In this document: positions 9,928 through 48,612 of the stretch, piece by piece
Numbering within the stretch: position 1 is the stretch's first letter
Layout of the letters: every line of letters starts with the position of its first letter
IMG/VR virus record: IMGVR_UViG_3300030372_003123
Coordinates: 1 to 50,972 of that record
Length of the DNA: 50,972 nt
Reading direction: 5' to 3' (one strand)
DNA from: a virus
Taxonomy: Duplodnaviria; Caudoviricetes
Program-made: the position numbers and the translations under genes
Notes under the pieces: model-generated
The model's database searches: none
What the model saw: only the letters and a program-made list of their open reading frames with translations
Told to the model about the DNA's origin: nothing

Positions 9928-9964
9928 AGTTATTTGTTTATTTTGTTCTTGTTGTACAAATAAG

Positions 9965-9992
9965 ATAATTACATGGTGATTCATATATTTAC
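9965..9992 (-). promoter_or_regulatory. putative late (phage sigma) promoter
   Basis: GTAAA-N14-TGTAATTAT, with the same boxes and spacing as 19436-19463. Confidence 0.65.
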
Positions 9993-10020
9993 TCCCCGTA
10001 TTATAAATGTTGGAGTATAG

Positions 10021-10175
10021 CCCTGCCCCTACTCTATAGACTACCTCCCCCCTCCCCAAAGTGCATTCCCTTTACCGGGTCCCCCTTTTCCCCCGTATTT
10101 GCCCCTAACCATTCAGATTTCCATTTAATTCCCTTTCCCATTCCCTTTCCTCATTCCCCTCTCTCCCTCTCCCCG
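10021..10175. other. C-rich/G-rich tract at the divergence of the transcription arms (candidate genome end, pac site or origin)
   Basis: Many C3-C6 runs and TTCCC repeats in an otherwise AT-rich genome. Non-coding. Confidence 0.45.
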
Positions 10176-10754: not shown

Positions 10755-10792
10755 ACAAATTGAATACGGAGCAGAACAGATAATAATAATAT
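10755..10792 (+). promoter_or_regulatory. early promoter-like motif, copy 3
   Basis: ACA-N7-TACGG-N8-AGATAATA-N4-TAT. Confidence 0.75.
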
Positions 10793-10804
10793 AAAATAAT
10801 AATA

Positions 10805-10990
10805 ATGAATTATAAAGAAATAAAAATAATGGGAATACTCGGTTTGAAGTGTTACAATAGTATACAAGAAAAATACTTTGATATGAAATACTTAAGTACT
10901 TTAAGTAGCAGTGAAGTATCAGATATACTAGAAAAATTAAGAATGAGAGACGACGTAGTTCCTAATTGTGATGAGTGTACTGTAATATAA
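10805..10990 (+). CDS. early hypothetical protein
   Basis: 61 aa, directly after a promoter motif. Confidence 0.65.
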   Translation: MNYKEIKIMGILGLKCYNSIQEKYFDMKYLSTLSSSEVSDILEKLRMRDDVVPNCDECTVI

Positions 10991-10992
10991 TT

Positions 10993-11030
10993 ACAAACTT
11001 ATTACGATAAAGTAAAGATAATAATAATAT
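10993..11030 (+). promoter_or_regulatory. early promoter-like motif, copy 4
   Basis: Same consensus and spacing. Confidence 0.75.
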
Positions 11031-11057
11031 AAAGTTTAACAAATAAAACAAATAGTT

Positions 11058-11467: not shown

Positions 11468-11558
11468 GGTAATGAACAAATCTTGGACACCTTCGCTAAT
11501 ATGCGAATGAATGTATGTCGAGTGGGAGTATCAGTGAGTTCGAGTCTCACCATTACCA
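11468..11558 (+). ncRNA. tRNA-like RNA 1 (acceptor stem plus T-arm, atypical interior)
   Basis: GGTAATG/CATTACC stem followed by A. T-arm GTGAG-TTCGAGT-CTCAC. Internal TTCGC/GCGAA hairpin with a 6-nt loop. Confidence 0.65.
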
Positions 11559-11976: not shown

Positions 11977-12014
11977 ACAAACTAAATACGAACACTAAAA
12001 GATAATAATAATAT
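11977..12014 (+). promoter_or_regulatory. early promoter-like motif, copy 5
   Basis: Same consensus. ATG 12013 overlaps its 3' end. Confidence 0.75.
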
Positions 12015-12153
12015 GAGATATGAATGTAAATATTGCAAAACTAACTACACTAGTCTAATTCTTAAGCAAATGAATGGCGAAATAACTAGACAAGATGTAC
12101 TAAATTATAAGTGTTGCGATAAAAAAAGTAAAAATGAAGAGAATAACAATTAA
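12013..12153 (+). CDS. small Cys-containing protein (46 aa)
   Basis: Manual translation MRYECKYCK...YKCCDKK. Confidence 0.5.
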   Translation: MRYECKYCKTNYTSLILKQMNGEITRQDVLNYKCCDKKSKNEENNN

Positions 12154-13883: not shown

Positions 13884-14054
13884 ATGGGAAATATAACACA
13901 AGAAGATTTTCAAGCTTACGAAGACGTAAGAGAATCAGGAGTAACTAATATGTTTAACACTGCTGTAGTATCAGACTACTCAGGTTTAAGTAGAGATAAA
14001 ATAATAAGTATAATGTCTCATTACTCTGATTTAAAACTAAAATACGGAAACTAA
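13884..14054 (+). CDS. small phage protein (RESGVTNMF motif, DUF5049-like)
   Basis: Manual translation MGNITQEDFQAYEDVRESGVTNMFN...KYGN. Confidence 0.6.
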   Translation: MGNITQEDFQAYEDVRESGVTNMFNTAVVSDYSGLSRDKIISIMSHYSDLKLKYGN

Positions 14055-14060
14055 ATATAA

Positions 14061-14350
14061 GGAAGTAGTGATAAAAGTCTGTGCACGGGCACTGCTTCCG
14101 CGAGTCTCCAACGATAATAGCCTTCACGTGGCTGGAGATGTAAGTATATTATTTTGCGCAAAAGATAAACGGTCGGACGGAATCCATTGCGGTAATAGAA
14201 ACTAATAATTATCAAATGCGGGCGAAGGATGAGTAACAAAGGTTTTAACCTCGGTATCTAACCTTCTTGCCGCTGTGTGCAAGCGTGCCTTGAAAAATAG
14301 GAGAATCACACAAACCGAGTAGTGCAACAGTACTTTAGTACTAGCTACTC
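14061..14350 (+). ncRNA. structured non-coding region with multiple helices
   Basis: GC-elevated and without a credible CDS. Helices GGAAGTAGTG/CACTGCTTCC, TCTCCA/TGGAGA, GAAGG/CCTTC, TGTGTG/CACACA and CTCGGT/ACCGAG. Confidence 0.5.
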
Positions 14351-14353
14351 AAT

Positions 14354-14494
14354 AGTATGAACGGGAATAATGCGCTGATACAATTTAAAATATCATCATT
14401 GACAGTAATTGCTTGCACTAGTAAACGTTTTCACGAGCTAGTGGGTGATGAAGGTTGCTTGACGAAGTAGTGGGTTCGAGTCCCACTCATACTA
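14354..14494 (+). ncRNA. tRNA-like RNA 2 (141 nt, acceptor stem plus T-arm, expanded interior)
   Basis: AGTATGA/TCATACT stem followed by A. T-arm GTGGG-TTCGAGT-CCCAC. Confidence 0.65.
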
Positions 14495-14513
14495 CTAACT
14501 AATAATAAATAAT

Positions 14514-14711
14514 ATGTTTGGACACAATTCACAAGCTGCTATAGATGAAATTAGTAGCGAATCAGAGTTATGGAAAGATGGATGTAGCGACGCTTACGAT
14601 CTAATTCAACAGTTACAATACCTAGCAAAAGAAAATGGTATTGAAATACCTAATGATTTAGATTTAAAGTGTGATAAATTCTTTGATCTATACAATGATA
14701 ATTGTATGTAA
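14514..14711 (+). CDS. acidic hypothetical protein
   Basis: 65-aa ORF with an A-rich leader. Confidence 0.6.
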   Translation: MFGHNSQAAIDEISSESELWKDGCSDAYDLIQQLQYLAKENGIEIPNDLDLKCDKFFDLYNDNCM

Positions 14712-14714
14712 AAT

Positions 14715-14813
14715 ACGAGGTGAGGGTGGTTTAACGGCAGGATAAAGCAGAAGTATATTCCCTTCGCAATAGCCATAGGTGAATATACAAGAACCACGCC
14801 TGCCCAACCTCGT
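14715..14813 (+). ncRNA. compact, possibly pseudoknotted RNA
   Basis: ACGAGGT/ACCTCGT, GTGGTT/AACCAC, GGCAGG/CCTGCC and GTATATTC/GAATATAC. Confidence 0.55.
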
Positions 14814-14918
14814 TCTTTATATAAGATAAGCAATAATCAGGTCGCTGGACATCTAGTAATCAATCTAGATTTTAATAAGACAGAGTATCCCAGTTGTAAA
14901 TGTACCTGTGAGCTTATC

Positions 14919-14956
14919 ACAAACTAAATACGAATAAAGTAAGATAATAATAATAT
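14919..14956 (+). promoter_or_regulatory. early promoter-like motif, copy 7
   Basis: Same consensus. ATG 14955 overlaps its 3' end. Confidence 0.75.
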
Positions 14957-15218
14957 GAAAAATATATATGATAGGCTAAAGCCAAAAATACGTAAAAGTA
15001 TACAAGATGATTTAAAAAAATATCCTACTTCAACTACATTATTAATAAAAAAGCTGAAAAAAAATTCATTTTGGCAAGACTTAAATGTTAGTGATGTACA
15101 AAAAGTTGTGCTATGGTCACATTATTCTTTAATAGAAATTAGTCACACTGATTTATTATATGGTGACAGATTTTTAGTAAATGAAGATGATGATTATATA
15201 GTATCAATAACAGGATAA
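14955..15218 (+). CDS. hypothetical protein
   Basis: 87 aa, after a promoter motif. Confidence 0.7.
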   Translation: MKNIYDRLKPKIRKSIQDDLKKYPTSTTLLIKKLKKNSFWQDLNVSDVQKVVLWSHYSLIEISHTDLLYGDRFLVNEDDDYIVSITG

Positions 15219-38988: not shown

Positions 38989-39016
38989 ATTATCACACAT
39001 TTATTGGTGAGCATAA
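38989..39016 (-). promoter_or_regulatory. putative late promoter (weaker upstream box)
   Basis: TTATG-N14-TGTGATAAT, upstream of the 38959-27967 operon. Confidence 0.45.
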
Positions 39017-42000
39017 CACTTTTTATTTGTATTCTCTGTTTTGTTCTTACATCTCTGTCCGTTAGATTTAGTTGCTGTACACCTATATTCTTTCTTGCCG
39101 TCACCATCAGTATCGCTTCCGTCTACAAACTTTTTATGATGAACACACTTCCAAGATTTAGCAGAAGTTTCAGTTGTTAATTTACATCTTTGACCATTAG
39201 TTCTTGTGCCAGAGCATCTAACTGTTTTAATACCTTTCTTTTTCTTTTCTTCTTCTTCTTTTTTCTTTTGTTCTTCTTTTTCTTTTTTCTTTTGCTCTTT
39301 CTTTTCTTCTCGCTTAATTTCTTTTTCAACTTTCTTTTCTTCTTTAACTTCTTCTCTAGCAGCTTCAACTTCTTCATCTTTTAATCCTAATTCCCATCTA
39401 CTCCAACCTAACATCATAGCTACACGTTTCCACGTTTCATGATTCCCTGTTATAGCTTCTTCTAAGTTATTAGCTTTGTTTAAAAGTCTTTGCGTAGGTA
39501 TATTTGTAGCACCCTCTATTAAAGCCGCCGCGGCTGCTAATTTAGGATTTTCTAATCTAAACTTTAGTTTATCTCTTGTGGCAGTTCTACCAAACTCTTT
39601 CATTTTATAAGCTTGAATTACTTTCCTAACTTTACTACCTATTGGTGGTGATAAATTTAAAGCTTGTTGAGCTATATCCATAACCTCATCTTTTTTAAAA
39701 CCTTCTTTAGCTTTTTGTGACTGTACGTGCCACTCTATAGCTACGTTTTTTAATGTAGACGCCATAGCTCCATATATACCAGTACCTCTTAAAAATGAAT
39801 CTAAAACGCTATTAGCTACTCTAGTTTCTTTTTCTTCTATTATTTCATCTTCTTCATCTCCACTAAACATCATAAACATTAATGCTGATTGTAAACTAGC
39901 AAACACTATATTTTGTACAGCACCATAATATAATATTTTAGATATATTAGTTTTAGTATCACCTCTACGATTAACTAAATCAGATAAAGCCTTCTTAGTT
40001 AATCTACCATATTGCATTGTTACGTTTTGAAACGCTAGTACGATACGACCTAACACGCTAGCTTGTTGCTTAGAAACTAAATCTTCTCTTGACGACTGCT
40101 GTGTTTCTTCTGCTATTTCTTGAAAGTCTAACATTGCTTGCTCATTAGCTTTAGCTTCTGTCATGCCTTGTTTTTTATATTTGTTATATCTGTTTCTATA
40201 AAAACTAGCGCCACCAAAAGCAATAGCTGTACTATCTGCTATTTGTGTAGGTAAAAATCCTTTTTCTAATAAAAAGTTAACTACAGCTTGATATGAATTA
40301 CCATTTTCTTTAAATGACTTAGTTAACTCAGAGGCAGATACATCTGTTTGCAAGCCTCTTCTTCTTTGCTTTAGTTGATCAGAGTTAAATAACATTGTAA
40401 AGTCTTTCCAAAACTGTGGTTGATTAGCAAAAGCTTTTGAAGCTTTAAATATATTATTATCACTAAAGTTTACAAAGTTAACTGAAGATATAGTTTGAAG
40501 CAAAGCAGATCTCATATTAAAAAACATAATAGAACCAACAGCTCCATTAATCCAATTAACCATAAAGTTAGTGTCCCTATCTTTGCTTACAACTCTATTA
40601 CCACCGTTTTCCATACGGTATAATATATTTTCTAAAGCTTCTCTATATCTAGTACCATAAGCTGCTTCTATTTTATTTAAATTTTCAGTTGTAAATATTT
40701 GATCTTTATTATCTATCCATTCATTTAAAAATTGTTTTCTACCAACTTTGTTTACTGTTTCTGATAAATCCCTAGCTATACTACCAACTACCCAATTTTG
40801 TCCAGGTTCTGTATAACCATCTTTTATTTTAGTTATAGTTGATATTGCTTCTGCAAAGTTTTTTAAATCAGGGTTTTTATTTATATGATTAACTAAATCT
40901 GTTTGTAAATTTTTTGATATATTAGGTATTTGTTTGCCAGCTTTGTTCCATAAATAAACTCTTATAGCAGAATCATTAGTAAGGCTAGTTCCTTCTACTT
41001 TATCATTTAATTTTTTAACAACTTTAGAATTTTGTTTTTTAATATTTCTAAAATCATCAGCCATGTTTTGTTTATATGTATTCCATGCTCTAATACCGTT
41101 AGCAAAAGGTTTTAACAAATTATTACTAAAAAATTTCATATCAGCATCACCTTGTTTACCTTTGCCTAAAAAGTAATATAATAAACCTTTAAAATCCTCC
41201 GCTGATGGTGGTATATAAAAATCAAATCTACCTATATTTCTACCACGAGCTCTAGCCTCAGCACCTGAAAATACTTTTTTACTACCTATTTTTTTCTTAC
41301 GCTCAATCATATCGTTTAGCTCTTTACTAGCATTTTTACTAAACTTTATTTTAGCCTGAACTACATCTGATTTAATATCTAATTGATCTAACGCTTGCTT
41401 TACAGCTTCAACATTTTGTATAGCATCATCTACAAAATACATGTCGTTATATCCTTCTGCGAACTTATTTAACATCCAATCTGCTTTAGCATCACCTGTA
41501 CTGTTAGCTAAACCAGTTATGTTGTCTATAGGTATATCTAAACCTTGTGATTTTAAAAACTGTTGTATAGGACCAGCTGAAGCTTGAGGTCTAGCTGTTA
41601 AAACAAATACATCTTTATTTCCAAACTTATCTATTCTTTGTTTTGCCTTATCTAGTAATGGGCCAGGTGTTCCGTCAACAACATCATTAAATTCTGTAAA
41701 ATCAAAATCACCACCTCGTTGTAATATAGACTCTCCTTGTGTGGCAAATTCTTCTGCGTCTAATCTAACTTTTTCATAGCTATTAACAAAGTCATTCATA
41801 TTGCTAACTAAGTTATCAGGCATGGCGTCTTTTTGAGTTAGGTTATCAGTGTTAACTTCCATAAACCTATTACCAAACATTGTTTTAAATTCAGGTTTAT
41901 TTTTCTGTACTGATTTGTGATTACGTTTAACTATAACATCTAATAATGATCTTTCTTTTCTTTTTTTATTACGATCTAATGCCACATCTAATGAAGTATC

Positions 42001-45000
42001 TACAAATAACATACTAACATCGTAACCTTTATTTTTAAACTCGTTAACTAGACTAGTCATTGATTTTACGCTACCGCCAGTGCCGTCTACTACAACACCA
42101 TTACCTTCACCTTGATACTTCATCATTTTACGTTTAGCTATTTTTCTAGACTCAGCACCTAATTTACCTAACGCACTTCTTTGCTCAGGTGTTAAGTCTC
42201 TCATATCAGCAGGTAAACCTGAGTTTTTCTTTAGCCACTCTAACGATATATCAGAATTAACTATTTTAAATCCTGAATCAGATAAACCTAGTTTTTTAAT
42301 TACATTACCTTTACCACTACCAGCGCCACCAGCTAAGAATACAACTTTACGATTTGGCTTTGGCGTACCATCAGGATTAGGTATTGTAGCTCTAATACCT
42401 GATTTAGTTTTAGCTAATGTATCATCAAAATCAAAAACAGATATACCCTTAGCTTCACCCGTTTTGCTATAGTTTATTCTATTATTAAAAGCATCATTTA
42501 TAGTTGCTGCTTTACTATATTTAGCTTTAGCTTTTAAATTAGCTACAGCTTTAGTGTTCATTAATTTATCAAAGAAGTCAGCATCAAACATACTTATTGT
42601 AGAAGGCTCTAAGTACTCTGGTGATATAAGAGCTTCTATTGTCATAGGGTATTTATAACCAGCTGTCTTCTTTTGACCTCTAGGACCTTCTTTGTAACTA
42701 GCTGATTTAATTCTAGCTTTTAAAGGAAAATTACCTTTTAATTTTGGCACGCCCATTTCGCTGTAAATACCATAAGGATCATTTAAATAATATGCTCCAG
42801 CTCCAACAACTTCTATTATATCAGAAGGCATTGATTTTTTACTATAAGCTTCTATAGCATATCCTTCGTCCACTGTTTGAGAAACATCTGCAACTTTACT
42901 TACATGTAAACCACTCACTTCTTTGTGTATAAAATCAGGAGTTTCAGAATTACTACCTTCTAATGGAAGGCCTAGCTTAGCTAATTCAGTAACTAAATTT
43001 TTACCGCCATTTTTTAAAGCGTTTTCAACTGCTTTTAAAGCTTTGTCTTTATATTTACCTTCATATTTAATTTTAAATTTACCGTTTTTAAAATCAATAA
43101 CATTAACTGGTATTTGAGGTAATCTAGCTGCGCCAAATTTAATCTCTGCGTTAAGAGGAAAAATAACATCAGCTCCACCTTTGTCTTTAAAAATAAGCCC
43201 GGCATGAAAATCTGGTATACCGCCTTCAGCAACTTCTCTAGTTAACATCACAAGATTAGCATGCTTTTTCTCAGCCTGCAGTCCAATATTTATAGCGGCT
43301 CTTTCAACCGCTGTTCCTGTGTTTTCTTGTATAATTTTTCTAGGAACTTTTTTTAATACTTTTGCTACAGCGTTTTTACTCTGACGATCACCTAAAATTA
43401 TATCTCCATTTAAAAATTGTTTAAAAACAATATCTTGAACTTGCTCAAGATAATTACCTACTTCAGGTTTTACTTTCCAACCATTATTATATTTTAAACT
43501 ATATATATCTTCTATTTTTTTAGCGTTAGATAATTTATCTACTAAATCCATAGCTTGATCAACTATAATATCTCCGCTTTTAGCTGAAACACCAGTTTTA
43601 CTAAATTTAACAGAAGGATCTCTATCTATTTGTTTAGCTATTATGGCTATATCGTTATCTAATATTTCTCGACCATCTAAATCTAATATGTTTTTTCTTT
43701 TTTCCATTACATCTGGTTGCTGTACTACATCCATTGTAGCATCAAAAGCTAGTTCAACACCTATTTCCATGGCTAGTTTGTCTTTTCTAGTACCAAGAGT
43801 TGAAGCTCCAACTTCGTAACCTAATTCTTGTTGCATATTAGAACCTCTAAAAAATGCCATTACTTTTTCAACGCCTGGGTAAGACTTTTTAGTATGAAGT
43901 TGTGGGCCAGAAGTTCTATTAGTATCTTTAGGTAATAAGCCTTGACTTATTAATTGATCTACTTCTGTAGGTTTAGTTATTCGTTTTGATTTAGTAAATA
44001 TTCTTTGATCTGGCTTTAAAGATCTTTCCATTTGAATTAAAGTCTCAACTGGTAAAGCATTATATACAGCTTCAAAGTTTTCATTTAAAAACGTATCATA
44101 CTTAGCTCTAGAGCCTATCATATCTTGTATAGGTTTTTTAAGCTCTGTTCTAAATCTTTTTTGAAGTTCGTTTCTAAAATTTTTAGAACTAACGTCTGGT
44201 AATCTAGTTCCAAATGTTTTAGTAACAGCTTGACGTACCCTATCTGACATGTCATTATTTAACCCTAGATCTTTTCTTAATTTAGAACTTTGCTCTTGTT
44301 TTACTAAACCTATATTATCTATTAAATCTTGCTCTACAGAAGTATCAGCTTCTAATTGAATTACAGGAGCGCCTTCGGTTGTTGTAGCATCTATATCTAC
44401 AGTTCTTTGTTTTGTTTTGTACTCTCTATTAAATACATTACCAGCTTTATTTGCTATTTGAGAATTAACCCAGCCAAATAAACTATCATTAACTTTAGGA
44501 TTAAAGTTTTTAACATGATTTGTAAGTTCTGAATATACTTTCGTAACAAAGTCTTGAGGTACTCTATCTGCTTTATACTTATTAGCAATTAGCCCATCAA
44601 GCATTTTATTATCTTTCATTTCTTTAATTGCAAAATCAGCCCCTTGTTCTTTCCACGTTTTAGGCGTCCAACCCATTTTACCTAATTCATCTACAGCTGG
44701 TTTAGCATCTTTAGATAATTTTAATTCATCAGACTTTCTTTTTTTAACCCTATCAGCTGCTTTTTTAGCTATATCAGCTCTTGATATTTCTTTTCTTTGT
44801 TTTAAAGTAAGAGTTCCATTTTTTATTTTTTTAGCTAATTGTGTTACAAAGTTTACTGCATCTGTCTCTGATTCAAAATTAAAATCAACATCTGACTTAG
44901 TAGCATCTTTAACACCTTGACCTAACATACCAGCCATCCAACCACCTAAACCTGAGTTTTCTTCTTTTTTAAAATCTATTTCACCACTAGAAACCATTTC

Positions 45001-48000
45001 CATAAAGTTAGTTAAAACCTCATCTGCTTGCATGCCTTCAGTTCGTAATTGTAATTTAGTATATAATGCTGGATTTGTTTTTGCAACGTATTGCATAATG
45101 TCACTAGCTACATCTTCAAAAGCTTTTGGGTCTTGACTTATAGCTTCATTTAAAATAGTATGACCAAGCTCGTGCGTTCTTGTTTCAAGACGATTATCTT
45201 TAGCCATGTTTTCAACAACTTGTACTGGTATAAATTGACCATCAGTAGTTGGTATATTAGCGCCATGCGCTCCGTTTTGTATTTCCTGTATTAACTCTTG
45301 TTTGTTAGCATCAGTTATATTATCTATTTTATTTATACCATCAATTGCTTGCTGTACGGTTTGAAAGTTTTTTAATGATTTACCTAATTTAGTTTTACCT
45401 CGTTTTTGTTTAAAATCATTATTTATTTCTTGAGTATTATATAATATTCTTGCTCTTTCATTTATTTGAAAGTCACTGGGGTTAGCGCTTCCTTCAGTAA
45501 ATAACTCTGATTTAGCTTGTTTAAATATTTCTTCTTTTCTATTTACATCTTCTTTTTTCTTACTGTATTTAAAGCCTGTAAATTTATCACCAAATACTTC
45601 TGAGTTATTTAAATCATTTATAACTCTAGTTACATTATCGTATTTATTTTGTAAGTTATTTATTATTTCTTTTTTACTGTTTTTATCTAAAGTTTTATCA
45701 GCATTTATTTTTTGAGCATTTATTTTTAACTTTTGTTTTTCTACAACTAAATCTCTATACGTGCCAGCAAACTCAGAACTTAAATTTTTTACTCTACTAA
45801 CTTGTTGATCAATAATAGTTTCATTTTCACCTAATAACTCAGCTTGCTCGCTAGCTAAAGCTTCAATAGCTTCGTTATTTAATTTAGGATCTTTTAATTT
45901 TTCATTTACTTGCTCTTGCGTAGGACTGTTATTGCCTTCTTTAGCAAATTCTTTTTTAATAATATCTGATTTTATTTTAAATATACTATTATCTATGTTA
46001 CCTATTTCTTCTAAGTTCTGTCTAAATTTTTTTACTGTAGGTGGTGGAGAAAATTGATTAGCGATAACACCATTTAGCGTTGAAAAATAACTTGTTTTAG
46101 CTCCAAACATATAACCAGCCATAGCTTGCTCAGGCACACCTTCCATTAAAGGTCTATTAGAAATAGCATTTTGTAATACACCAGTAGTACCTTCACCAAT
46201 AGCCTCTGTTGCTCTTAACGTAAGGCCATCAACAACTGTTTCTTTTAAAAATCTACTATAAGTACCAACTCCGTCATTTAATACATTACCCTTAAATGTT
46301 TTCATTCGTCTAGTAACTCTACTTATTTGACTTAAAAAAACAACGTCAGGAACAAATTCAGCCGCAGCGTAACCAAGTGATATAGCGTTTTTCTTTAAAT
46401 ATGATTTTTTTTTAGCAAAAGGTTGCCGTTTTTCCTCTTCAAGCATAACCCCATATTGATTTGCACCACTACTACTAGCTACAAGATATACACCGCCTGG
46501 TAGAAATATAGCACCAAATTGAGCTATATTATTAGCCGTAGTGCTTAGTGCCCATCTACCAATGCCTTCACGGCTTTTAAAAGCGGTTCTAAAATCTACT
46601 GGCATCTGCTCCTCTTCTTTTAATATACGCATAGACTCGTTTAAATTCAATAAGCGTTGATTAGTCAATTTTCCATAAACTGAATCATCAGGATTCCAAA
46701 GACCACCTGACGCGATATGACCAGTAAATTGAATAGCTTTGTGAATACCACCAGCGCCAGTATAAAAAAGATTTTCAGCGCCTAATCCAAATTCTTTAAT
46801 AGCTTGCCTGCTATCGTTATAATTCCTTTGAATTAAGTTATTTATAAAATCACTATTCTGGTCTATGCCCTCACCTGCTTTATCATTCTCGTCTAGAAAA
46901 TTTTCATATTCCTCGTAGCCATTATTAAATTCCGCTACATTGTTTAAATAATTATCTAGTTCTCTTTGAGATATTTTTTTACCATTTTTTAAAGTAACAA
47001 CATCATCACCTTTTAATACATTAAATTCATAATCAGGATTTTGAACATTAGTTTCAAAATTAGTAATATTATTTGATAAATTTTTTAATATAGGTAAATT
47101 ATTTTTTTCGTAGTAAGCTTTTTCATAATCCGCTTGAATAATTTTTTTTGCTTGATTTCTATTGGATAATCCGCTTATAGCTTGAAACTCACTTAAATTA
47201 AAGCCTTGTATATTACCAAACCATTGTTCGCCTTCTATTTCATCGGAATTTAAAATTTTAGATGTATTATTTGTTATAACCTTTTGTTGCTGTTTTCTTA
47301 TTATTAATTTTCTAGCAAAGTTTTGTATTTGCTCTTTTGTTGGATTACTAATACCAGCTTCTTTTAATGACTTTTCAGCCATCTCAAGCTCTTCTTCAAA
47401 AGGTTGAATAATCTTACTACTAGCACCACGAAACGTCATCTCTTCAGGGGTAAATTGAATTTCTTTTAAATCAAATAAGTTTGGGTTATTAGGTGGGTTA
47501 TACTTAGGATTAGGATCGCCATTTGATAAAAACTCATTATTGTCAATAGGTAATTGAGGGTTTTTAGCACCGAATTGTAAATTTAACTTATCAACATCTT
47601 CTTGTGGTAGTATTTTATCTTTCTTTAACTTAAATTCTTCAATTAAATTACTTTGATAGTTTTCAATGCTTGACAGTTCTTCTTTATTTAAATTTTGATA
47701 TAAAAATCTGTATAAATTTTCAGATTGCTTATTTATGGCATCGTTAAATTTTTGTGTTTGAAATTCTTCTCCAGCGAAACCTTTTTTAAAAGTACCTGTT
47801 AAAAATTTTTTGTACTCTTGAGACTTTTTTATATTAGATCTTATATCAACGTAATCATTACTTAACGTAAAAGTGCCATCTTGTAGTTTATTTTTTCTAT
47901 AGATACGAAGATTCCCATCATTTGTTTCTTGCATTTGAAAAAGATCATCACTAAAACCCATTGCTTGTAGTTTATCTTTTTGTTCAGTAGGGGTTCCTGA

Positions 48001-48612
48001 ACTCCAAAACGCTGGATCTTTTACGTTAAAGTTTGCTATATCAAAACCTTCTAATATTTCTTTTTCGTAAGTTTTTCTTTCTTTACTTTTTTCTTCAGGT
48101 ATTATTATTTTTTCATCATCTTTTTTTTCAGACTTAAAAACAGGTATAGGATCAGCTACAACTAAATCTTTAGATAAATCGTCTGTTTTTTTAACTTTTT
48201 CTTTTTGTTTTTTATTTAAATCTTTTTCTTGAATTATATTACCAGTTACTGGATCTTCATAATAAGGACCGTTAGCTCCAAATTTTAATATAGGTTCAGT
48301 TGGTTCTACTTTATCTGGTTTTTTTTCAGTCGTTTCTATTTCAGTTGACTGCGAGTCCGATGAAGTATTTTTTGAATTAGGTTCTGTGTTTTCTTTTTGA
48401 TTGTTTTGAGATAGATCTATCTCTTTGACTTGTTTTTTTGGCTTATACATTTCTGATTCATTATTGCCAAAAAGACTTGGTGATCCCTCCTGCTGCTGCG
48501 CATCGGGATATTGTGATTTAAATTGTTCTATTAGATTTGAAGGTACAAATTTAGTTTTTTCTAAACCATCATCTCCAATGAATGTAAATTTTATTGGTGC
48601 TTGTTCTGCCAT
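39001..48612 (-). CDS. giant multidomain (polyvalent) virion/ejection protein
   Basis: HELGH zincin, sigma region 2-like segment, PD..ExK, HAD DFDDT...TAR...K...DD with inserted P-loop GGAGSGKG, and two C-terminal CxxxxxxGxRC zinc motifs. Confidence 0.8.
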   Translation of the reverse strand: MAEQAPIKFTFIGDDGLEKTKFVPSNLIEQFKSQYPDAQQQEGSPSLFGNNESEMYKPKKQVKEIDLSQNNQKENTEPNSKNTSSDSQSTEIETTEKKPDKVEPTEPILKFGANGPYYEDPVTGNIIQEKDLNKKQKEKVKKTDDLSKDLVVADPIPVFKSEKKDDEKIIIPEEKSKERKTYEKEILEGFDIANFNVKDPAFWSSGTPTEQKDKLQAMGFSDDLFQMQETNDGNLRIYRKNKLQDGTFTLSNDYVDIRSNIKKSQEYKKFLTGTFKKGFAGEEFQTQKFNDAINKQSENLYRFLYQNLNKEELSSIENYQSNLIEEFKLKKDKILPQEDVDKLNLQFGAKNPQLPIDNNEFLSNGDPNPKYNPPNNPNLFDLKEIQFTPEEMTFRGASSKIIQPFEEELEMAEKSLKEAGISNPTKEQIQNFARKLIIRKQQQKVITNNTSKILNSDEIEGEQWFGNIQGFNLSEFQAISGLSNRNQAKKIIQADYEKAYYEKNNLPILKNLSNNITNFETNVQNPDYEFNVLKGDDVVTLKNGKKISQRELDNYLNNVAEFNNGYEEYENFLDENDKAGEGIDQNSDFINNLIQRNYNDSRQAIKEFGLGAENLFYTGAGGIHKAIQFTGHIASGGLWNPDDSVYGKLTNQRLLNLNESMRILKEEEQMPVDFRTAFKSREGIGRWALSTTANNIAQFGAIFLPGGVYLVASSSGANQYGVMLEEEKRQPFAKKKSYLKKNAISLGYAAAEFVPDVVFLSQISRVTRRMKTFKGNVLNDGVGTYSRFLKETVVDGLTLRATEAIGEGTTGVLQNAISNRPLMEGVPEQAMAGYMFGAKTSYFSTLNGVIANQFSPPPTVKKFRQNLEEIGNIDNSIFKIKSDIIKKEFAKEGNNSPTQEQVNEKLKDPKLNNEAIEALASEQAELLGENETIIDQQVSRVKNLSSEFAGTYRDLVVEKQKLKINAQKINADKTLDKNSKKEIINNLQNKYDNVTRVINDLNNSEVFGDKFTGFKYSKKKEDVNRKEEIFKQAKSELFTEGSANPSDFQINERARILYNTQEINNDFKQKRGKTKLGKSLKNFQTVQQAIDGINKIDNITDANKQELIQEIQNGAHGANIPTTDGQFIPVQVVENMAKDNRLETRTHELGHTILNEAISQDPKAFEDVASDIMQYVAKTNPALYTKLQLRTEGMQADEVLTNFMEMVSSGEIDFKKEENSGLGGWMAGMLGQGVKDATKSDVDFNFESETDAVNFVTQLAKKIKNGTLTLKQRKEISRADIAKKAADRVKKRKSDELKLSKDAKPAVDELGKMGWTPKTWKEQGADFAIKEMKDNKMLDGLIANKYKADRVPQDFVTKVYSELTNHVKNFNPKVNDSLFGWVNSQIANKAGNVFNREYKTKQRTVDIDATTTEGAPVIQLEADTSVEQDLIDNIGLVKQEQSSKLRKDLGLNNDMSDRVRQAVTKTFGTRLPDVSSKNFRNELQKRFRTELKKPIQDMIGSRAKYDTFLNENFEAVYNALPVETLIQMERSLKPDQRIFTKSKRITKPTEVDQLISQGLLPKDTNRTSGPQLHTKKSYPGVEKVMAFFRGSNMQQELGYEVGASTLGTRKDKLAMEIGVELAFDATMDVVQQPDVMEKRKNILDLDGREILDNDIAIIAKQIDRDPSVKFSKTGVSAKSGDIIVDQAMDLVDKLSNAKKIEDIYSLKYNNGWKVKPEVGNYLEQVQDIVFKQFLNGDIILGDRQSKNAVAKVLKKVPRKIIQENTGTAVERAAINIGLQAEKKHANLVMLTREVAEGGIPDFHAGLIFKDKGGADVIFPLNAEIKFGAARLPQIPVNVIDFKNGKFKIKYEGKYKDKALKAVENALKNGGKNLVTELAKLGLPLEGSNSETPDFIHKEVSGLHVSKVADVSQTVDEGYAIEAYSKKSMPSDIIEVVGAGAYYLNDPYGIYSEMGVPKLKGNFPLKARIKSASYKEGPRGQKKTAGYKYPMTIEALISPEYLEPSTISMFDADFFDKLMNTKAVANLKAKAKYSKAATINDAFNNRINYSKTGEAKGISVFDFDDTLAKTKSGIRATIPNPDGTPKPNRKVVFLAGGAGSGKGNVIKKLGLSDSGFKIVNSDISLEWLKKNSGLPADMRDLTPEQRSALGKLGAESRKIAKRKMMKYQGEGNGVVVDGTGGSVKSMTSLVNEFKNKGYDVSMLFVDTSLDVALDRNKKRKERSLLDVIVKRNHKSVQKNKPEFKTMFGNRFMEVNTDNLTQKDAMPDNLVSNMNDFVNSYEKVRLDAEEFATQGESILQRGGDFDFTEFNDVVDGTPGPLLDKAKQRIDKFGNKDVFVLTARPQASAGPIQQFLKSQGLDIPIDNITGLANSTGDAKADWMLNKFAEGYNDMYFVDDAIQNVEAVKQALDQLDIKSDVVQAKIKFSKNASKELNDMIERKKKIGSKKVFSGAEARARGRNIGRFDFYIPPSAEDFKGLLYYFLGKGKQGDADMKFFSNNLLKPFANGIRAWNTYKQNMADDFRNIKKQNSKVVKKLNDKVEGTSLTNDSAIRVYLWNKAGKQIPNISKNLQTDLVNHINKNPDLKNFAEAISTITKIKDGYTEPGQNWVVGSIARDLSETVNKVGRKQFLNEWIDNKDQIFTTENLNKIEAAYGTRYREALENILYRMENGGNRVVSKDRDTNFMVNWINGAVGSIMFFNMRSALLQTISSVNFVNFSDNNIFKASKAFANQPQFWKDFTMLFNSDQLKQRRRGLQTDVSASELTKSFKENGNSYQAVVNFLLEKGFLPTQIADSTAIAFGGASFYRNRYNKYKKQGMTEAKANEQAMLDFQEIAEETQQSSREDLVSKQQASVLGRIVLAFQNVTMQYGRLTKKALSDLVNRRGDTKTNISKILYYGAVQNIVFASLQSALMFMMFSGDEEDEIIEEKETRVANSVLDSFLRGTGIYGAMASTLKNVAIEWHVQSQKAKEGFKKDEVMDIAQQALNLSPPIGSKVRKVIQAYKMKEFGRTATRDKLKFRLENPKLAAAAALIEGATNIPTQRLLNKANNLEEAITGNHETWKRVAMMLGWSRWELGLKDEEVEAAREEVKEEKKVEKEIKREEKKEQKKKEKEEQKKKEEEEKKKKGIKTVRCSGTRTNGQRCKLTTETSAKSWKCVHHKKFVDGSDTDGDGKKEYRCTATKSNGQRCKNKTENTNKKCYAHQ

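Follow-up and report, generated by a model that had tools for sequence, protein, structure and literature searches.

Predicted Structured Phage RNAs that Join a tRNA Acceptor Stem and T-arm to a Non-decoding Interior

The window, i.e. the whole stretch of DNA that was analyzed (50,972 bases), is an entire virus record and is estimated to be 77% complete. It encodes GroEL, an ATP-dependent DNA ligase, a sigma factor, a primase-helicase, thymidylate synthase and ribonucleotide reductase, and it has a 3,203-aa open reading frame on the minus strand (positions 39001–48612). The best cultured matches show 33% identity for the ligase and 41% for GroEL. The sigma factor search found no cultured match, and none of these three proteins led to a close cultured relative of the phage. 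Judging by the AT-rich start contexts of the phage and by a Cellulophaga phage that carries a similar element, the host may belong to the Bacteroidota. A scan for sigma-70 promoters gave chance-level results only. An AT-rich motif is repeated upstream of short open reading frames, at positions 14920–14957 and in similar form at about 10762–10807, 11020–11037 and 11980–12015. It is common in relatives as well and probably represents a phage promoter with a start context.

Among short plus-strand open reading frames there is a non-coding gap of 460 nt (positions 14055–14513), which houses a 141-nt element at positions 14354–14494. An open reading frame starts 22 nt past the 3′ end of the element. 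On its 5′ side, at about 14055–14353 of the plus strand, local folds predict a non-coding run of five hairpins, much of which is covered by contigs from RNA sequencing runs. On its 3′ side, a separate RNA scaffold with a predicted pseudoknot and a variable insert is found at positions 14714–14816 of the plus strand (fold of the surrounding 14712–14955, z = −2.87). A GC-richer non-coding stretch lies at 14839–14915, the place where a relative (L001) has an ordinary tRNA-Asp gene.

All parts of the 14354–14494 element are on the plus strand. Its ends form a 7-bp acceptor stem, in which AGTATGA (14354–14360) pairs at 7 of 7 positions with TCATACT (14487–14493). The 3′ segment (14487–14496) continues with the discriminator A14494, C74 and a T; as CT follows the discriminator, CCA is not encoded. 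A canonical T-arm, GTGGG-TTCGAGT-CCCAC, occupies positions 14470–14486, so that the acceptor/T-stem arrangement is 7/5 bp. The initial annotation, made from the sequence alone, had described these parts correctly and had put the enclosed interior at about 110 nt; it was counted here as 109 nt.

The interior opens with a stemless, D-loop-like linker (14361–14365) that carries GG at positions 14364–14365. A 38-nt insert follows (14366–14403), and then a central arm in place of the anticodon arm (14404–14454), which is bounded by AGTA (14404–14407) and GAAGG (14450–14454). The AGUA and GAA on the two sides of this arm may resemble a bulged-G (loop E) motif. The central arm includes a portable hairpin module (14417–14442) with a 5-bp helix, a TAAA/AG internal loop, CG/CG pairing and a TTTTCA tip. 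Between the central arm and the T-arm is a variable-arm-like hairpin of 5 bp with a GACG loop (14456–14469). This hairpin, the GG, AGTA and GAAGG motifs, and a second element at 11468–11558 (see below) are additions to the initial annotation. The folding energy of the 14354–14494 element is ordinary (z = −1.26). With a strict detector of a T-arm plus acceptor, the plus strand of the window yields two elements and the minus strand none. Among 300 dinucleotide shuffles, 9 contain one element and none contains two; when the local kilobase is shuffled, 1 of 3000 shuffles contains one.

Pattern scans yielded 3 and 6 viral loci and 59 metagenome loci. The metagenome loci comprise 37 family members (one truncated) and 22 others, 16 of which are ARAGORN tRNAs that share the 3′ 24-mer pattern (13 of the 16 being tRNA-Leu). 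Over all loci, some of which overlap on one contig, 51 hits reduce to 23 distinct complete sequences. The aligned core has the order acceptor, short GG linker, AGTA, central arm of variable length, GAAGG, 5-bp variable-arm hairpin, T-arm and acceptor, and it ends in N-C-A or N-C-T. The window copy consists of this core and the 38-nt insert, which is missing from the other 22 distinct members. AGTA and GAAGG are invariant, and both the GG and C74 are present in 23/23 homologues. The collecting regular expression required the GG; non-tRNA homologues listed without that requirement (intact 5′ end) carry it too. Modeled on tRNA, this GG may be the equivalent of G18/G19 and dock on the T-loop. The discriminator is A in 20 members, G in 2 and T in 1. 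The alignment has neither U8 nor a D-stem, and even insert-free members show no standard D or anticodon arm, as had been noted for the window copy.

In the 23 distinct sequences, 97.6% of 540 cells are paired and both sides have changed at 8 of 26 pairs (41 cells). None of 500 shuffles gave as high a value and slid controls pair at 28%–50%; the structure was hand-written from the same sequences, and the shuffle ignores relatedness. The search pattern fixed most of the T-arm and the 3′ acceptor strand and left the 5′ acceptor strand, the variable arm and the central helix free. Compensatory changes are found in the acceptor, the T-stem, the variable-arm hairpin and the central arm. In the variable-arm hairpin 100% of cells are paired, with both-side changes at 4 of 5 pairs, and in the T-stem one pair changes from G-C to A-U in 2/23. 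At acceptor pairs 3:70 and 5:68 both sides have changed in 7/23 and 9/23 homologues; pair 3:70 is U-A in 14 members (the window element among them), C-G in 7, U-G in 1 and unpaired in 1. Three interior helices had been proposed for the window copy. One of these, CACTAG/CTAGTG (14416–14421/14438–14443), is common to the homologues and covaries. The other two were not sustained: TGATA/TATCA overlaps TCATCA and has a pair probability of 0.02, and TCATCA/TGATGA reaches 0.9 in RNAfold but is built on the insert that 22 of the 23 members do not have. It is very probable that these sequences constitute a conserved structured RNA family.

A covariance model built from the family detects the paralogues and, less strongly, tRNAs of class II. 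In GTDB genomes one scan for family members gave 0 hits and another gave 1 unrelated hit. The latter (L148, from a Bacteroidia bin) is a T-arm element of another subfamily without an ARAGORN call, and it directly precedes an apparent tRNA gene. Blastn searches against cultured phages gave short T-arm matches only, one of which led to the cultured Cellulophaga phage phi13:2. There, an unannotated top half with a 7-bp acceptor and a T-arm (L126, about 9950–10032) lies directly upstream of a MazG-like gene and receives no ARAGORN call. Rfam searches with the window and the homologues, both at gathering and at E-value level, gave no family, and the literature covered, mostly outside subscription papers, does not describe it. 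Structured RNAs were predicted from IMG/VR by Fremin et al. 2023 (PMC10690425); four family motifs are absent from six supplementary files of that paper, and its files 1, 2 and 4, which lay outside this search, may hold the family.

ARAGORN detects 0 genes in the window, as the initial annotation had expected, and makes 0 calls at 37 family loci. Rfam shows nothing in the window at gathering score. At E ≤ 5, positions 14000–15000 match neither tRNA nor tmRNA, and the family members in 8 loci have no Rfam match either. When the family is compared with canonical tRNA (RF00005), the 7-bp acceptor and the 5-bp T-stem with a TTCRANY loop are present; the D-arm and the 5-bp anticodon stem with a 7-nt loop were sought, and neither is found in the family. 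An intron-containing tRNA was rejected, as ARAGORN with introns is silent at 100, 95 and 90% of threshold and gives a mis-registered call at 85%. The 3′ acceptor strand, T-arm and variable arm are like those of phage class II tRNA-Leu (RF00005), whereas the D-stem, U8 and the anticodon stem-loop are missing. The ancestor was likely a class II, leucine-type tRNA gene. With tmRNA (RF00023) the element shares a stemless D-loop directly past the acceptor; it was held not to be a tmRNA for want of a G3:U70 pair, and this is upheld by the U-A at 3:70, by the lack of the combined G3.U70 and A73 alanine identity throughout the window subfamily, and by the lack of an Rfam tmRNA match. The description as a tRNA-capped small RNA thus stands, and two outcomes that had been named as contrary to it, recognition as a tRNA and lack of covariation, were not found, since tRNA identity is absent and the homologues covary. 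An allo-tRNA (8/4 or 9/3, as reported in PMC5389517) was rejected, as it needs a longer acceptor and a shorter T-stem than 7/5. For a bacterial Y RNA of the YrlA type there is no Rfam match, and no Ro60/TROVE protein was found among 29 proteins of this 77% complete record.

The element had been treated as a single one, but it is really one among several paralogous scaffolds whose interiors can be exchanged. Their extent was examined in 49 loci (L076–L124; 704,437 bases) that were collected by a neighboring ligase gene, blind to RNA content. These loci contain 85 T-arms, 80 of them on the gene strand. Non-canonical elements with an acceptor number 57 (50 distinct, 2 on the minus strand, a few probably chance or mis-registered) and occur in 33/49 loci; 11 T-arms have no found acceptor. 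ARAGORN detects 17 ordinary tRNAs in the same loci, 9 tRNA-Arg(TCT) and 8 tRNA-Met(CAT) and no others, a ratio of about 3 anticodon-less elements to 1 tRNA. GG occurs 2–5 nt past the acceptor in 42/50 distinct paralogues vs. 6/27 shuffled hits, and C74 in 43/50 vs. 6/27. Elements with both number 47, vs. a mean of 0.17 over 12 shuffles. Interiors range from 9 nt to over 100 nt, and acceptor sequences are unrelated between paralogues, yet paired. The GACG variable arm is common to window-type, AGCTTGA-type and AACTAG-type elements, and most AGCTTGA-type paralogues have G as discriminator. All nine tRNA-Arg genes (9/9) end in ACA or ACT, as the elements do. Elements that abut head to tail, like tRNA dimers, are found in L019, L093 and L120.

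The second top-half element of the window (positions 11468–11558, plus strand) has a GGTAATG/CATTACC acceptor, a T-arm at 11534–11550 and a 59-nt interior. Its counterparts in L005, L007, L076, L085, L095, L098 and L100 are about 41 nt long with a 9-nt GG linker, which is close to a minimal RNase P substrate. Ten distinct paralogues of 47–147 nt, which start with GGG, have G3.U70 together with A73; no element of this type occurs in the window. One of these matches the Rfam tmRNA minus its mRNA domain (36.6 bits, E = 3.3e-12, cut-off 47); the paralogues with sub-threshold Rfam tmRNA matches lie in L105 and L007. These tag-less tmRNA look-alikes are present in L087, L088, L093, L094, L095, L098, L100, L103, L105 and L114.

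The interior of the 14354–14494 element also has a mobile part. The hairpin core at positions 14417–14442 recurs with five different closing helices, all fully paired. It is found inside top halves of the window type and of the AACTAG type (L105, L130), inside the pseudoknot scaffold of L144, and outside any top half in L114, L134 and L147. Its conserved loop on a covarying stem looks like a protein-binding site. Further short modules are common to several scaffolds, or to an interior and a flank. The upstream hairpin modules are gained, lost and swapped among relatives, and one loop (14287–14298 region) recurs within a scaffold of L001; this modular cluster, whose folding energy is not significant (z = −1.24), is likely a precursor leader. 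The pseudoknot scaffold displays 31 distinct versions in 42 hits (L001, L015, L032, L082, L144 and others), with inserts of 6–84 nt, and it often ends a few bases 5′ of a tRNA-like element (A- or B-type). An Rfam match to positions 14714–14816 was sought and none was found. This scaffold may act as a ribozyme or serve to protect the RNA.

Known phage RNAs offer the closest anatomical parallels. T4 RNAC (species 1 RNA, rnaC; NC_000866, 70908–71046) is 139 nt long vs. 141 nt here. It has acceptor-like ends, GG right past the 5′ strand, a long non-tRNA interior, a hairpin just 5′ of a canonical T-arm, and no encoded CCA. Its function is given as unknown in PMC3014915, PMC9697503 and PMC12685909. 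Unlike the element, its acceptor pairs at only 5/7 positions and it is a demonstrated transcript; it has no match to the family model at E ≤ 1. In the annotated T4 cluster two RNAs of this kind accompany eight tRNAs, whereas elements here outnumber tRNAs. T5 RNA1 and RNA2 (NC_005859, annotated “tRNA-like stable RNA with unknown functions”) are 144 and 125 nt long and share an acceptor, a long arm replacing the anticodon arm, a variable-arm hairpin and a T-arm; they differ in retaining a D-arm hairpin, which the family does not have. The family covariance model finds neither T4 RNAC nor T5 RNA1/RNA2. The family is thus likened to these RNAs by anatomy, with no detectable homology: tRNA ends and a T-arm surround a non-decoding interior within a phage small-RNA cluster.

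The mycobacteriophage DS6A TLD-only tmRNA is likewise phage-encoded, with a stemless D-loop and a helix replacing the anticodon arm. It has been proposed to titrate a host protein (PMC4131195, PMC11915505), and RNA of the TLD-only type is reported to inhibit tmRNA (PMC4131195), which sets a precedent for action in trans. Ten paralogues in the related phages fit this type; the window element differs, as it has no G3.U70 and carries a variable-arm hairpin at the place of the short tmRNA linker. Plant mitochondrial t-elements are also tRNA-like structures; they lie beside mRNA ends, where RNase P and RNase Z presumably cut them (PMC1920247). They show no conserved sequence motif at their processed ends, whereas the family has invariant and covarying interior motifs.

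Data on expression come from contigs of RNA sequencing runs, which may include DNA and cannot show RNA ends or CCA. Small shares of the region are found in nine sequencing runs. Runs X3, X6, X8 and X9, which have small shares, were left out of the expression analysis. In four RNA runs on the window, contigs cover parts of the upstream hairpins and reach position 14373; none covers 14398–14511, and such holes in contigs prove nothing. In L076, contigs from two studies begin among the upstream hairpins, enter a family member at its 5′ part and continue in the short-interior variant; they stop or diverge 5′ of the T-arm.

The proposed explanation is that host RNase P and CCA addition produce a stable, non-decoding RNA whose central hairpin ties up a host RNA-binding protein; we assign this reading a probability of roughly 0.5. 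The element would be transcribed together with the upstream hairpins in a longer precursor. RNase P would cut at position 14354, guided by the 12-bp acceptor/T ruler, the T-loop and C74. RNase P is reported to cleave model substrates made of an acceptor and a T-arm, and to measure 12 bp (PMC11143913), and all subgroups retain these needs: acceptor plus T-arm, 12 bp, the T-loop and the 3′ C. Trimming of the 3′ end and CCA addition would follow, as for the CCA-less tRNA genes of the clade, and the tRNA ends would confer stability. A tRNA-type maturation of this kind is probable. Because it has no anticodon, the product cannot decode. Chances are about even that it acts in trans, as a decoy or a scaffold. 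Candidate targets would be defense effectors that bind the acceptor end or elbow, translation quality-control factors, or a reader of the portable hairpin. Defense toxins that target the acceptor end, such as FaRel2, are described (PMC11559606). They would match the half of the tRNA that these RNAs keep more closely than anticodon nucleases do.

A decoy specifically for anticodon nucleases received no support. Among 72 loops predicted in 43 interiors, none has the form of a 7-nt anticodon loop, compared with 0.23 on average in shuffled sequences; under a looser criterion the counts were 0 real vs. 3.6 shuffled. RNAfold closes the TTTTCA tip to four bases, and for that reason the tip was left out of this scoring.

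It is rather unlikely that the top half is instead a cis processing signal, in the manner of t-elements or tRNA punctuation, in which the transcript is divided by RNase P together with a 3′ nuclease and the RNA is a by-product. Such a role would suit the paralogues of about 41 nt, which retain only what RNase P needs and many of which lie between the repeated promoter-like motif and a start codon, as well as the open reading frame close downstream of the window element, and plant mitochondria offer a precedent (PMC1920247). But punctuation would require neither the invariant motifs of the interior nor the covariation of the variable arm, and it would not call for a portable hairpin or abutting pairs; ordinary tRNA genes take similar positions in these phages. 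We favor action in trans, to which the invariant interior motifs, the portable cargo, the tandem copies and the TLD-only paralogues point. Paralogues with interiors of 9–15 nt carry no cargo, so a cargo role cannot span the whole class. Another improbable reading is a charged mimic, in which the RNA carries an amino acid, most likely leucine, and ties up EF-Tu or donates that amino acid off the ribosome. Leucylation is made conceivable by the leucine-type 3′ half and by the finding that tRNA-Leu can dispense with its anticodon arm (PMC9976931). Yet the discriminator is G or T in 3/23 members and G in most AGCTTGA-type paralogues, G73 is reported to be an antideterminant for LeuRS, and U8 and the D-stem are missing. 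Since the discriminator varies, charging by one specific synthetase is probably unlikely.

Another possibility concerns the window allele alone: the family may be functional and this copy damaged by its 38-nt insert, which would pair with the T-stem and spoil the tRNA shape. In RNAfold the insert and linker of the window copy pair with its T-stem, whose probability is therefore 0.01 at 37 °C (0.02–0.03 at 20 and 10 °C); the T-stem exceeds 0.5 in 20/23 members. In this copy the family fold lies 3.7 kcal/mol above the predicted minimum, and thus the allele may misfold. The insert occurs in just 1/23 distinct sequences. Against damage, the copy keeps all invariant positions and reaches 86.8 bits with the family model (which was trained on it among others), an identical insert-bearing element recurs in an independent locus (L037), and two insert-free members also lose the T-stem in RNAfold, which disregards tertiary contacts and modifications. 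The allele may be damaged, or the folding model may overlook tertiary contacts; overall, damage appears doubtful. That the element is a tRNA pseudogene in decay, a tRNA with an intron or what is left of an integration site is very improbable and already largely refuted. Probable tRNA-Leu ancestry and the ARAGORN call at 85% of threshold speak for such an origin, but this call begins 17 nt upstream of the acceptor and is gone at 90%, GTDB genomes hold no family match (the 1 hit being unrelated), and no integrase is present among the 29 Pfam-scanned proteins of the 77% complete record. In addition, the compensatory changes argue for selection.

A broader proposal, which we put forward as tentative, is that these phages have a natural tRNA-scaffold system. 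Top halves, tag-less tmRNA bodies and the pseudoknot would serve as a chassis matured by the host, on which aptamer-like hairpins are swapped by recombination, to make a fast-evolving kit of RNA decoys against proteins of host defense and translation control.

T4 RNAC and T5 RNA1/RNA2 are tRNA-shaped phage RNAs without a known job, and the present clade provides a natural deletion and swap series of RNAs of that shape. Within it the interior ranges from 9 nt to more than 100 nt, the acceptors have unrelated sequences yet remain paired, one subgroup resembles a tmRNA without its tag, and one hairpin moves between scaffolds. It separates a role of the shell from a role of the cargo and makes an old question testable, also in the cultured phage phi13:2. 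Because standard tRNA finders miss these elements, counts of tRNA-type genes in phages understate the class.
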